From the NCBI GenBank assembly GCA_963675665.1, contig OY776510.1, positions 2,720,001 through 2,784,000 on the forward strand: a stretch of 64,000 bases of DNA. Direction: 5' to 3'. The notes beneath the pieces are model-generated. The model ran no database searches. It saw only the letters and a program-made list of their open reading frames with translations, and had not been told where the DNA came from. The translations under genes and the position numbers were made by a program. This document shows, piece after piece, positions 43,553 to 47,033 of the stretch (position 1 is its first letter; each line of letters begins with the position of its first letter). Source of the DNA: Spirochaetia bacterium (GTDB lineage Bacteria > Spirochaetota > Spirochaetia > UBA9216).

Positions 43553-43834
43553 TTATTCCTTAACATATGAAATTATTTTCTCCATGTCGGCTTCCATTCC
43601 GATTCCTGTAAGAAAGGAAAGAGTTTGAATTACCGGTATGTCTCCGACATCGCCGACAGGAGTTGTTGTAACTATCAGATCCACACCGTCAAGTTTTGAC
43701 GGGACTTCAGCCGCTTTGCACTGAATAAGATTGACTTTAATTCCTTTCTCCTCGAGATGTTCTTCAATTTTCCTCAAAACTACAGTTGACGTCGCCACTG
43801 CTGTTCCGCATGAAACAAGAATTTTTTTTGCCAT
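43553..43834 (-). CDS. PTS galactitol-family EIIB
   Basis: 'ILVSCGTAVATST' phosphorylation loop. Confidence 0.93.
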   Translation of the reverse strand: MAKKILVSCGTAVATSTVVLRKIEEHLEEKGIKVNLIQCKAAEVPSKLDGVDLIVTTTPVGDVGDIPVIQTLSFLTGIGMEADMEKIISYVKE

Positions 43835-43896
43835 TTAACACTCCTATAAAAAGTCAACCACAAGCTAAAAATATAAGCTTATGATCTAGTCGGATA

Positions 43897-45009
43897 TCAA
43901 CCGACCATTACAGCTTCCCATGCTGCTGCCTGCATTTCCCTGTATTCTTTTCTAAAAGCCATTTTCATCGGATCAAACGGCTCTCTGGTTTTTAAAATTG
44001 TATATACCAAAGTGCTCATCTTGCGGGCGGCAGCTATTACACTCTTACCCGAGCCTTTCTGCTTCTTCATCGCTGCATACTTCGTCATTATTCGGTACGT
44101 CCCGGTCTTCTTTTGCATACGAACCATTCCCATCACCATCTGTACGAAGGCTGTCCTCAGTTCTACAGGCCCACGCTTTGTTATATGTCCATGATGTATT
44201 GTCATATTTGAGTTCTGCACCCATGGCACAAGCCCGGCGTTTGCTGCATATTTCTTCGCACTATCATATCTGCCGATATCGTCTGTATAGGCTCTTACTG
44301 TTGCTGCTGTTATTAGACCCACGCCTGGTATTGTCTGCAGAAGCTCAACATCTTCATCGTCCTCCACAAGCTCAGCCAAAACCTTTTCAAGCTGCTTGAC
44401 TTGCGATGCCTGATTATCTATCATATCCAGTAACGGTATTACCGTTTTGGCAGCGCTTCCGTAAAAGTCGTGGTCCTCGAGACCGTTCAGGATTCGCTGC
44501 CTTTCTTTTTTACTCTGCAGCTGTCCGCGTTTGGTCTCTATTCCATAACCAAGTAATAAGCCATGCACCTGGTTCTTTAACGACACAACAGATTTTACCA
44601 GTATCGACCTGGATTTCAGCACCCTTCGAATATCCTCACTCTCTTGGGAACATAATATCGATTCAGGCAGCATGTCTTTCTCAAGAAACTCCGCCAGGGT
44701 GCGTGCATCATGTTTGTCTGTCTTTTTTACAGATTCATTCACTACCTTGAATTTCAAAGTATTCACTACAACCACTTCGACTCCAGCCTTTAACAGTTTA
44801 TTGCGGAAATAACGGGCATTCCCGGTTGTTTCCACCGCTGCTCTCAACTCATATTCCTCTTCACAATATTCATCCAGCATTTTCAGAAATGCTCCATAAC
44901 CATTTCCGCTGGTCGGATACATTCCCAATTGATCAATTTTTCGGTCTTCACTTAAAAGGCATACTGTAAACTGCGTTTTGTGAAGATCCACGCCAATACT
45001 CATCTTCAT
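43897..45009 (-). CDS. IS110-family DEDD transposase/recombinase
   Basis: 'GVDLHK', 'AVETTG', 'KTDKHDA' (DEDD RuvC-like); 'TIPGVG', 'AGLVP..QNS', 'AAARK'. Confidence 0.95.
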   Translation of the reverse strand: MKMSIGVDLHKTQFTVCLLSEDRKIDQLGMYPTSGNGYGAFLKMLDEYCEEEYELRAAVETTGNARYFRNKLLKAGVEVVVVNTLKFKVVNESVKKTDKHDARTLAEFLEKDMLPESILCSQESEDIRRVLKSRSILVKSVVSLKNQVHGLLLGYGIETKRGQLQSKKERQRILNGLEDHDFYGSAAKTVIPLLDMIDNQASQVKQLEKVLAELVEDDEDVELLQTIPGVGLITAATVRAYTDDIGRYDSAKKYAANAGLVPWVQNSNMTIHHGHITKRGPVELRTAFVQMVMGMVRMQKKTGTYRIMTKYAAMKKQKGSGKSVIAAARKMSTLVYTILKTREPFDPMKMAFRKEYREMQAAAWEAVMVG

Positions 45010-45039
45010 GTTCTATCTCCAATAGTTTGAAGCAGTGCC

Positions 45040-45200
45040 TATACGGTGAATTGTTCCATTCTCCTATCCGGTCTCGCAGACCATTGAATGTTTCGGTTAC
45101 GGCTCTTCAATCTCCTAAACGGTCTCGCGGACCAGTAAAAATGTCGAACAGTAACCTTACTGCCTCAATTAAAGTTAAGGCAGTATATCAATTCACCAGC
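45040..45200 (-). ncRNA. Candidate bridge RNA (seekRNA) in the IS110 non-coding end
   Basis: Closing stem GGTGAATTG/CAATTCACC, 5' hairpin TACTGCCT..AGGCAGTA, two repeated modules TGGTC(C/T)GCGAGACCG-NNTAGGAG-A(T/A)TG with guides matching junction sequences. Confidence 0.75.
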
Positions 45201-45296
45201 TCATGAAGACTTTTTATCATTCCTCCTATAAAAGTTTACCGCCAAAAAGCTGCAAAGCAGCCCGGATGGCGGGGATTGCATCCTGATGATATATCA

Positions 45297-47033
45297 TCAT
45301 TGTACATCTGCATACTTTTGAAGAAAAGACTTAATTTCTTCTTCTGTCTTAAATTTTAAAATATCATCAGCTGCTTTTTTACAATCCTGATAACTGACGG
45401 ACCTGATAATTGAAACAGCTTCCGGCAGCATTTGTCCACTCATGCTTAATTCATTGATACCAAGTCCGATTAAAGCGGGAATTGCAGCCGGAATACCCCC
45501 GAGCTCGCCGCAGATTCCCGCCCATCTGTTATTTTTATGAGCATTATCGACAGCAGTTTTTAATGAACGAAATACTGCCGGGCTGAAGAGCCTGTAATAT
45601 TCTGAAACATTCTCATTGATACGGTCCGCGCAGAGGGTGTACTGCGTAAGATCGTTTGTTCCAATGCTGATGAAATCACATTCTTCCGTAAGGATGTCGG
45701 AAATCATGACTGCAGCAGGGGTTTCTACCATAACGCCGACTTCGATATCACCGTTAAAAACAGCGTTCTCATTTTCCAGTTCAGAAATGCATTCGGATAT
45801 TACTGCCCTGGCGGCACGAAATTCCGTTACGTCAGCTACCATCGGGAACATGATCTTTATATTGCCGAAGGCCGCCGCCCTTAGTATTGCCCTAAGCTGA
45901 GTCTTGAAAATATTCCTGTATTTAAGAGAAACTCTGAGTCCCCTTAACCCAAGGAACGGATTATCTTCTTCAGGAAGATTAAAACATTTTACTTCTTTAT
46001 CTCCTCCGATATCAAGAGTCCTGATAATCACCATCCCGGGGTTAAGCTGTTCAGCTACTTTTTTATAGAAATAATATTGCTTTTCTTCATCCGGTAAATT
46101 AACTGTATCAAGAAAAAAGAATTCTGTTCTGAGCAGTCCGACGCTCCGGGCACCGCAGCCGACTGCATTCTGAAGATCCTCAAGCGACCCTATATTTGCT
46201 GATAATTCAATCGTTCGTCCGTCGATTGTAACCGGCTCAAGGTTTCTGACTGCATTAAGGTGTTCTGTTCTCAGGCGGTATTTTTCTTTTTCAGTCATGA
46301 ATTCTGATCTTTCATCATCATTCGGTGAAATCCAGATTTTGGCCGTTTCAAAATCACGGGTGTCGAGAAGAACCTCTGATTTCGGTTCCGTTTTACTCAG
46401 GGCTCCTGCAGCACCGACCACCGCCGGGATGCCGAGCGTTTTAGCCAGAATGGCGACATGCGAGGTCACTCCGCCCTGTTCGGTGATTAATCCTTTTACG
46501 TTATTTTTATTCATCAGGGCCGTATCGGAAGGCATGAGATCCGCTGCAATTACAATAGAATTTTCAGGTATGTTCGAAAGATCCCGGCTTTCCATCCCCA
46601 GCAGGTTTCTGAGAATTCTATTGTATACATCGGTAAGATCAAGAAGCCTTTGCCGGTTGTAATCGTCCTCACCGAGCGCGGTAAAAAGATCGGCGTAGCC
46701 GGTGAAAACTGTCTTTAAAGCTTCTTCGGCACAGACTTGTTTGTCTTTGATTATCTCCCTGATTTCAGTTGAGAACTCCTCATCTTCAATCATCGTCATC
46801 TGAGCCCTGAAGATGTGCCCGAATTCCTTACCGAGAGCACCGGAAAGATTGCTTTTTAAATTTTCAAGTTCCGATCTCGCTGCTTTAAATGCAGCTTCAA
46901 TCCTGTTGTATTCAGCTTCACTGTTTTCAGTTTTTTTACTGCTGAATGAAAGATCCTGTTCCTGGTAGATGAAGGCATAACCGTAACTGATGCCGGGAGA
47001 AGCGCTTCGACCTGTTAGCTGTCCCATACTCAT
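45297..47033 (-). CDS. ptsI: PTS enzyme I
   Basis: 'GGVTSHVAILA', 'VGLLRTEF', 'RTLDIGGDK', 'NPFLGLRG', 'SIGTNDLTQY', 'CGE'. Confidence 0.96.
   Translation of the reverse strand: MSMGQLTGRSASPGISYGYAFIYQEQDLSFSSKKTENSEAEYNRIEAAFKAARSELENLKSNLSGALGKEFGHIFRAQMTMIEDEEFSTEIREIIKDKQVCAEEALKTVFTGYADLFTALGEDDYNRQRLLDLTDVYNRILRNLLGMESRDLSNIPENSIVIAADLMPSDTALMNKNNVKGLITEQGGVTSHVAILAKTLGIPAVVGAAGALSKTEPKSEVLLDTRDFETAKIWISPNDDERSEFMTEKEKYRLRTEHLNAVRNLEPVTIDGRTIELSANIGSLEDLQNAVGCGARSVGLLRTEFFFLDTVNLPDEEKQYYFYKKVAEQLNPGMVIIRTLDIGGDKEVKCFNLPEEDNPFLGLRGLRVSLKYRNIFKTQLRAILRAAAFGNIKIMFPMVADVTEFRAARAVISECISELENENAVFNGDIEVGVMVETPAAVMISDILTEECDFISIGTNDLTQYTLCADRINENVSEYYRLFSPAVFRSLKTAVDNAHKNNRWAGICGELGGIPAAIPALIGLGINELSMSGQMLPEAVSIIRSVSYQDCKKAADDILKFKTEEEIKSFLQKYADVQ

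Follow-up and report, generated by a model that had tools for sequence, protein, structure and literature searches.

An IS110-family element of a spirochaete with a bridge RNA very probably set to Shine-Dalgarno sequences

How does an insertion sequence (IS) come to lie between the ribosome-binding site (RBS) of a bacterial gene and its start codon, and leave an RBS of the same sequence in front of that gene? The question is raised by a 64,000-nucleotide (nt) stretch of a Spirochaetia bacterium genome (contig OY776510.1 of assembly GCA_963675665.1, positions 2,720,001 to 2,784,000; hereafter the window), in which an IS110-family element separates two genes of a phosphotransferase system (PTS), those for enzyme I (EI) and enzyme IIB (EIIB). 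An earlier reading made from the sequence alone, here called the sequence-only reading, had proposed that this element is programmed to hit Shine-Dalgarno (SD) sequences and rebuilds the RBS that it interrupts; both junctions that it wrote out were reproduced from the sequence, and Pfam confirmed the IS110 recombinase, PTS EI and PTS_IIB. From the genomic copies, the relatives in other genomes and the predicted guide RNA, we conclude that the element is very probably an active or recently active IS110-family bridge recombinase whose bridge RNA is set to recombine at SD sequences.

In the genome, a single contig of 5.15 Mb, there are 15 full copies of the element with 99.4-100% identity, and all 15 are placed in the same way: directly after a host AGGAG and in the orientation of the open reading frame (ORF) behind them, whose ATG lies 5-7 nt past the right end (...TTGACTTTTTATAGGAG). 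This spacing is 6 nt in 12 copies, 5 nt in two and 7 nt in one. The ORFs behind the copies are 93-729 amino acids (aa) long and 13 of the 15 carry N-terminally placed Pfam domains; their products include phosphoglucose isomerase (PGI), 2-keto-3-deoxy-6-phosphogluconate (KDPG) aldolase, a transketolase-like E1-beta, a dihydrolipoamide-dehydrogenase-type flavoprotein (E3) and a pyridoxal-phosphate (PLP) decarboxylase. Nine copies have a co-directional ORF ending at most 85 nt upstream. Two copies lie about 8 kb apart, at genome positions 1288549-1289949 (before the E1-beta-like gene) and 1296999-1298390 (before the dihydrolipoamide-dehydrogenase-like gene); these two genes may form part of one dehydrogenase-complex gene cluster.

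The genome contains 6,575 AGGAG sequences, of which only 611 have N5-7-ATG behind them with an ORF no shorter than 90 codons. The 7-mers found in the left flanks of the copies are SD-like at 12-25% of their occurrences genome-wide; all 15 copies would be at SD-like sites by chance with P ~1e-12, and the left motif alone therefore cannot explain the SD location.

The same placement recurs in other genomes. A scan for relatives, with one genome per species, returned 80 loci; in several phyla, elements with left ends like GAATGATAAAAAG and right ends TTGACTTTTTATAGGAG lie after AGGAG and before ATG. The relatives include a metagenome-assembled genome (MAG) of Oceanispirochaeta (79% protein identity, 10 loci), a Syntrophales MAG (74%, 9 loci) and Marispirochaeta (56%, 12 loci), as well as singletons labelled Treponema, Leptospira, Desulfobacterales, Dehalococcoidales and Dysgonamonadaceae. 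Over the 68 sites at which guide patterns were found (25 distinct guide sets, the genome's own copies included), AGGAG terminates 56 of 59 readable left flanks, and an ATG lies 3-9 nt away at 55 of 58 readable right flanks (at 6 nt in 29), the exceptions being L028, L047 and L050. Elements from Lentisphaeria, with 33-35% protein identity, have the right end TATCATAGGAG, followed by an ATG 5-9 nt on in seven of eight. The sequence-only reading had expected copies at AGGAG shortly before an ATG in a fixed orientation, and all 15 of the genome's own copies bear this out. At the ATG-less site L047, in a Spirochaeta MAG, an apparent second partial right end follows the right end, with no gene start.

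At the locus in the window, the minus strand reads EI, a leader, the element and EIIB, in this order:

45297..47033, minus strand: PTS enzyme I gene, upstream of the element and co-oriented with it (Pfam PEP-utilizers domains)
45228..45296, minus strand: host leader from the EI stop codon to the SD, 69 nt (10-45 nt here in relatives)
45223..45227, minus strand: host AGGAG, the original SD, adjoining the left end; the sole sequence common to all 15 left flanks
43841..45222, minus strand: whole IS110-family element, 1,382 bp with the right-hand AGGAG included; the flanks of the 15 copies diverge exactly at these boundaries
45210..45222, minus strand: left end GAATGATAAAAAG, with a TG-N-TAAAAA (-10-like) box, conserved in about 45 relatives
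43897..45009, minus strand: recombinase gene, 370 aa (Pfam DEDD_Tnp_IS110 and Transposase_20)
43841..43859, minus strand: right end GGTTGACTTTTTATAGGAG, comprising AGGAG (43841-43845) and a -35-like TTGACT, identical in 15 of 15 copies and kept in relatives across phyla
43553..43834, minus strand: PTS EIIB gene, whose RBS the element hit (Pfam PTS_IIB; 85-96% identical orthologues directly after EI in seven genomes)

The left junction on the minus strand is GGTAAAC-TTTTATAGGAG followed by the element's GAATGATAAAAAG, and the right junction is GGTTGAC-TTTTTATAGGAG followed by TGTTAA-ATG, with the EIIB ATG at 43834-43832. The two junctions share an 11-mer, at 45223-45233 on the left and 43841-43851 on the right.

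The recombinase scores 216.8 bits against NCBIfam NF033542 ('IS110 family RNA-guided transposase'; cutoff 140) and has the Pfam domains PF01548 (DEDD RuvC-like, N-terminal) and PF02371 (Tnp, C-terminal). It can be aligned to the solved IS621 and ISCro4 transposases with all the catalytic D, E, D, D and S residues present; by this alignment, with numbering counted by hand, D8, E60, D98, D101 and S267 lie opposite D11, E60, D102, D105 and S241 of IS621. These domains and the catalytic serine, the lack of a target-site duplication, the short shared core, a two-loop RNA beside the gene and the covariation of target and donor sequences together place the element in the IS110 family. It departs from the IS1111 subgroup, in which the guide RNA lies downstream of the recombinase: here both loops are in the 213-nt left end, and 55 nt follow the stop codon.

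RNAalifold, applied to 26 different elements, predicts two stem-enclosed internal loops with a small hairpin each in the 213-nt left end, with compensatory changes in 13 of 28 predicted pairs; an Rfam scan of the element, bridge RNA included, found no family matches. The hairpins of the guide modules read CGGTCTCGC(A/G)GACC, and the predicted parts are as follows:

45094..45156, minus strand: target-binding loop (consensus fold of 26 elements, compensatory pairs; 3' arm covaries with the left flank)
about 45040..45096, minus strand: donor-binding loop (same fold; 5' arm covaries with left-end nt 1-5)
45083-45090, minus strand: donor-loop 5' arm CAUUCAAU
45070-45082, minus strand: donor-loop hairpin
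45056-45069, minus strand: donor-loop 3' arm GGAUAGGAG-AAUGG

The 3' arm of the first loop reads NNN-AGGAG, and its variable bases follow the host flank: they match at position -1 in 21 of 22 elements, at -2 in 17 and at the third base in 8. Together these make 46 of 66 matches, where permutation gives a mean of 29.7 and none of 50,000 shuffles reaches the observed value. Elements with the arm UACAGGAG have flanks ending TACAGGAG in 7 of 10 cases and ACAGGAG in 8 of 10; those with CAAAGGAG have AAAGGAG flanks in 8 of 9, and those with UUAAGGAG TAAGGAG flanks in 5 of 6. The second loop follows the element's own ends. Its 3' arm is always (G/A)AUAGGAG, of which AUAGGAG equals the constant right end ATAGGAG, and its 5' arm makes 53 of 60 Watson-Crick pairs with left-end nt 1-5 (p = 0.0003), with poorer pairing (42 of 60) to the RNA's own 3' strand. 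Left end and donor 5' arm change together in the sets GAATG/CAUUC, GTATG/CAUAC, GCACG/CGUGC and GCATG/CAUGC; in the element studied here, CAUUC pairs with the left-end start GAATG. Covariation with the flank in loop 1 and with the end in loop 2 identifies them as the target loop and the donor loop, respectively. With its sense sequence NN-AGGAG, the 3' arm of the target loop pairs with the complement of the mRNA-sense SD, and so specifies the SD and the two bases that precede it. The two bases that follow each AGGAG arm on its 3' side were also considered as handshake guides; no consistent pairing emerged, and the idea was dropped.

On the start-codon side, CAU opens the target-loop 5' arm of every one of the 26 elements; in the element studied here the arm is U-rich (CAUUUUUACU). 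The sequence-only reading had set this arm in the IS621 register, which donor-loop homology also implies and in which CAU faces ATG at a spacing of 4; real sites have a spacing of 6, a misfit for which we rejected that register, and the 2-nt shift of CAT that the earlier reading had remarked upon is this very difference. Extending the whole 5' arm to the hairpin puts CAU opposite ATG at spacing 6 and fits better. In this register the 15 occupied sites score 5.4/8, compared with 3.47/8 for 252 SD-like sites that share the left 7-mers (p = 3e-5), with no signal at the two core-adjacent bases; spacing 6 itself is found at 12 of 15 occupied sites against a background of 44% (P = 0.005). Occupied sites are accordingly a non-random subset of SD sites, marked by spacing 6, a spacer richer in A and a T-rich upstream region. 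Through its invariant CAU and the U-rich run, the 5' arm probably adds recognition of a spacer rich in A and of the ATG that lies 6 nt on; that CAU in the target loop reads the ATG itself has a roughly even chance of being right. The guide reading proposed earlier thus stands on the SD side, where covariation carries it, and on the start-codon side takes the form of a statistical association in a different register.

Several observations weigh against this account. Ten of the 15 left flanks of the genome's own copies are ATAGGAG, like the donor arm and unlike the target arm (UUAGGAG), and some insertions may be donor-like 'half-match' events. The register that best fits the sites is not the one that homology with IS621 and with the donor loop supports, and the per-position composition of the 15 spacers is not strongly different from that of other SD sites. 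Among relatives the SD-ATG spacing ranges from 3 to 9 nt, and variable positions of the 5' arm covary weakly with the spacers (p about 0.001-0.01), a signal confounded by base composition. The crossover, too, is placed within or at the edge of AGGAG, its exact point being one that we infer.

The alternative that survives best is that the element reads the 7-nt NNAGGAG and nothing more, its association with gene starts being produced by the purging of in-gene insertions. The lack of a strong per-position signal in the right-hand spacer and the 3-9-nt range of spacing in relatives would fit, and CAU could pair with AUG in the loop's own 3' strand (C-G and A-U pairs in the RNAalifold prediction, in invariant columns where covariation is not possible). 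We nevertheless think this unlikely: the same 7-mers are too seldom SD-like in the genome to yield 15 of 15, as calculated above, and occupied sites stand out even within SD sites. Purging would also have had little time to act, given copies of such high identity and a recombinase that, at E <= 1e-40, was not found in 10 same-family genomes.

Reading of the SD by the target loop has also to be weighed against a miniature repeat that shares the element's ends. This repeat, of about 108 bp and without a recombinase gene, was found through unoccupied TTTATAGGAG sites; a first model of it returned 72 copies in the genome and a full-length model 86. It starts with GAATGATAAAA, with up to 24 nt like the IS left end, and ends with TTTTTATAGGAG. 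An xGGAG end is present in 66 of 72 hits; a start codon and an ORF of at least 60 codons follow 52, another copy or an IS follows 14, and neither follows one. Among 33 well-delimited copies, 22 are preceded by [AT]GGAG; GAATG and ATAGGAG, which the donor loop reads, occur together in 12. Representative sites are:

2525956-2526065, 2400739-2400848 and 738796-738905 (genome) and L008:1402-1495: repeats between a host AGGAG and the ATG of a gene
1652349-1652894, 2973137-2973369, 4576612-4576830, 836249-836456 and 4279413-4279640 (genome): head-to-tail arrays of up to five units

Tandem arrays are as expected if the right end of one unit recreates the target for the next. On the strand opposite the gene, the repeat is Rfam TD-2 (RF03162): 33 matches, 18 of them over the gathering score of 48.7 bits and the best at 67.5. 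TD-2 matches were found in five of five congeners searched (G001-G005 and G008, loci L108-L112), while a search of 14 control genomes with RF03162 gave none. Three TD-2 loci of other species were checked in the gene sense; two read GGAG ... AGGAG-ATG, and the third has GGGGG(T) on the left, not GGAG. As the repeat is in all the congeners searched and the recombinase was not found in the same-family genomes, the repeat predates the full element in this lineage; the latter has the look of a newcomer that has since multiplied. With the same termini and target and no recombinase gene, the repeat has the make-up of a MITE-like, non-autonomous derivative that uses the same sites and is probably mobilised in trans.

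Five of the 15 IS copies adjoin a significant repeat match and two more have repeat-like leaders, and such abutment probably explains why some left flanks are identical to the IS right end over 11-14 nt. The element might, then, home mainly to its own right end, as carried by the repeats, through a half-match with the donor arm, its association with SDs being secondary. The ATAGGAG of most left flanks, shared with the donor arm and right end, is in keeping with this, and recognition by the donor loop alone is reported for IS621 in a preprint (bioRxiv 10.64898/2026.08.31.748434). We hold such homing to be quite improbable as the main process, since 8 of 15 copies lie at ordinary operon-internal SDs without a repeat and the flanks in relatives track the target arm, not the donor arm, in the proportions given above. 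The earlier contrast between translation-initiation regions and repeats is half right, with at least five of the 15 copies at the SD-bearing end of a miniature repeat. For the copy in the window, the last 23 nt of the leader weakly resemble the right end of the repeat (nhmmer, model positions 88-110, E = 0.33), and this flank may be a degenerate miniature repeat.

The copy in the window is flanked by an 11-bp repeat. Left flanks of the 15 copies end in ATAGGAG (10), TTAGGAG (three), AAAGGAG (one) and TAAGGAG (one), varying immediately 5' of AGGAG; the 11-mer of the right end is invariant among all copies, and the two are identical over 11 bp in the window copy and a few others only. A cut-and-paste transposase generating an 11-bp target-site duplication, suggested by the identical 11-mers on both sides of this copy, is refuted by a right 11-mer fixed in copies and other-phylum relatives beside a left one that varies beyond AGGAG, as well as by the single SD in relatives' empty sites and by an enzyme family described as recombining site-specifically at a short shared core (PMC11208160). 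The outcomes that would have spoken against the sequence-only reading, namely unrelated sites, random orientation or a plain duplication, did not occur. AGGAG is what the host site and the element end have in common, comparable to the CT core of IS621. Seven related genomes of the same genus and family, with EI DNA 66-73% identical and EIIB protein 85-96% identical, provide the empty site that the sequence-only reading had proposed to look for in related strains: a 10-45-nt gap between EI and EIIB without the element, with one AGGAG or AGGGG 6-8 nt before the EIIB ATG.

These results suggest how insertion might proceed. A circle with the junction ...TATAGGAG/GAATG... would recombine with the host sequence ...NNAGGAG/spacer-ATG, with strands crossing over in the last AG of AGGAG; read on the opposite strand, this AG is the canonical CT core of the family. 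At the left junction the host SD would remain, and the element's TTTTATAGGAG, constant at the right end in all copies and relatives, would take up the original distance from the start codon; the hit gene would in this way retain an SD, as the sequence-only reading had supposed, and its native spacer, and could still be translated from the element-borne SD. Because guide polarity fixes orientation, the bridge RNA and recombinase genes would always be co-directional with the hit gene, and transcription of the host operon could read through them into the downstream gene. Forming the circle might also create a junction promoter, with TTGACT as -35, 17 nt ending in TG-N, and TAAAAA as extended -10. 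The right-end TTGACT and left-end TAAAAA, 17 nt apart, are compatible with a promoter of the IS621 type, where transcription of the RNA runs from the junction into the left end (PMC11208160, PMC11208158).

Read-through, expression of the bridge RNA, translation of EIIB and low damage to the host could all follow from this arrangement of sequences. Read-through and continued translation gain indirect support from the intact housekeeping genes behind the copies and from the sense strand of the element, on which a consensus scan, the one search made, saw no terminator-like site. Promoter and terminator counts in that scan were at chance level, and we rejected them as evidence in their own right.

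The likeness to IS621 is extensive: the catalytic DEDD and Tnp residues, a bridge RNA in a long left end, the absence of a target duplication, a CT core (here on the complementary strand) and two internal loops, in each of which one arm reads one strand and the other arm the opposite strand, to the two sides of a short core. The arms themselves differ. As the text of PMC11208158 has it, the 5' arm of IS621 carries the sense sequence of left target and right end, and its 3' arm the complement of right target and left end. Here it is the 3' arm that carries the sense sequence of left target and right end, with the 5' arm complementary to the left end, so that the arm order is reversed. The informative long arm is likewise the 3' arm (7 nt including the core), and the natural target is an SD and not a repetitive extragenic palindromic (REP) sequence. 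The IS621 arm order is recovered only by reading the opposite DNA strand, which gives the core CT and the target CAT-spacer-CT-CCTNN; we infer that the RNA and recombinase genes are inverted relative to the core polarity when compared with IS621, an inversion that would make them co-directional with the hit gene. Since many bridge-RNA models are reported in a preprint (10.64898/2026.10.21.760802) to deviate from the IS621 structure, we do not claim that this arrangement is unreported.

Insertion at translation-initiation signals has precedents. IS900 and IS901, like the present element, enter in one orientation between an SD and its start codon, according to Doran 1997 and Inglis 2003 (both cited in PMC2942039) and to the title of Doran 1997 as given in PMC8141618; the latter paper assigns the host signals at IS900 to 'hed', an ORF encoded on the other strand from the transposase, which by implication makes the IS900 transposase antisense to the hit gene, unlike the co-directional recombinase here. 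With the REP-targeting elements ISPpu9, ISPpu10 and IS621 it has in common a short, repeated, mostly harmless motif entered in a fixed orientation; the motif here is a functional one, an RBS, which the end of the element regenerates. RBS targeting by IS110 elements has therefore been in print for decades (IS900, IS901), and guidance by bridge RNA has been known since 2024. A literature search, whose reach did not extend to most subscription journals and supplements, found no paper that joins RBS targeting to a bridge RNA, describes this clade or links TD motifs to IS110. What the present results offer is a tie between the old IS110 hits on translation-initiation signals and the bridge-RNA mechanism, with natural covariation as evidence, and a naturally occurring bridge RNA whose arm order is reversed and whose 3' arm is long, a find of use for understanding and engineering bridge recombinases. 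They also give an example of an element that resides before housekeeping genes (PGI, KDPG aldolase, dehydrogenase-complex subunits) with SD and spacing retained.

For the orphan Rfam motif TD-2 they suggest a testable origin, as the non-autonomous partner that supplies an RBS to some 50 genes in this genome. In Treponema denticola, TD-1 has been described in a 5' configuration to genes and as overlapping reverse complements of TD-2, and both motifs were put forward as candidates for structured or non-coding RNAs, with no function assigned (Weinberg 2007, PMC1950547). The repeat studied here shares the RF03162 match with those motifs and resembles, in addition, a non-autonomous IS110 partner in its termini, its flanks and its tandem arrays; the T. 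denticola instances enter this comparison by their description. A wider picture can be offered tentatively, and we lean somewhat against it as a whole: there may be a cross-phylum IS110 clade with a composite target of SD plus spacer and start codon, with a polarity inverted so that host operons drive the element, and with TD-1/TD-2 partners mobilised in trans as leader-plus-RBS cassettes before dozens of genes.

Some smaller observations concern the copy in the window. Its displaced host SD faces a 10-codon ORF at 45217-45187 on the minus strand, with an ATG 2 nt past AGGAG. A functional role for this ORF was rejected, as 2 nt is too short a spacing and relatives whose left end starts with GCACG lack the ATG. 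No contig from four runs bridges the empty site; the contigs hold instead a collapsed, high-depth repeat with many alternative flanks, and loose ends of read contigs fall at 43840/43841 and 45225-45237, near the boundaries of the element. In one contig of runs X1 and X3, some 36 nt of the left end are linked through six other letters to some 21 nt of the right end (43860 / 45190); the joint has 4 mismatches and short sides, may be a tiny deletion derivative, and had no match in the assembled genome at up to 3 mismatches. A copy-specific difference lies at position 43888, within the 55-nt right end: A in the window copy, G in the collapsed repeat contigs of runs X1, X3 and X4.

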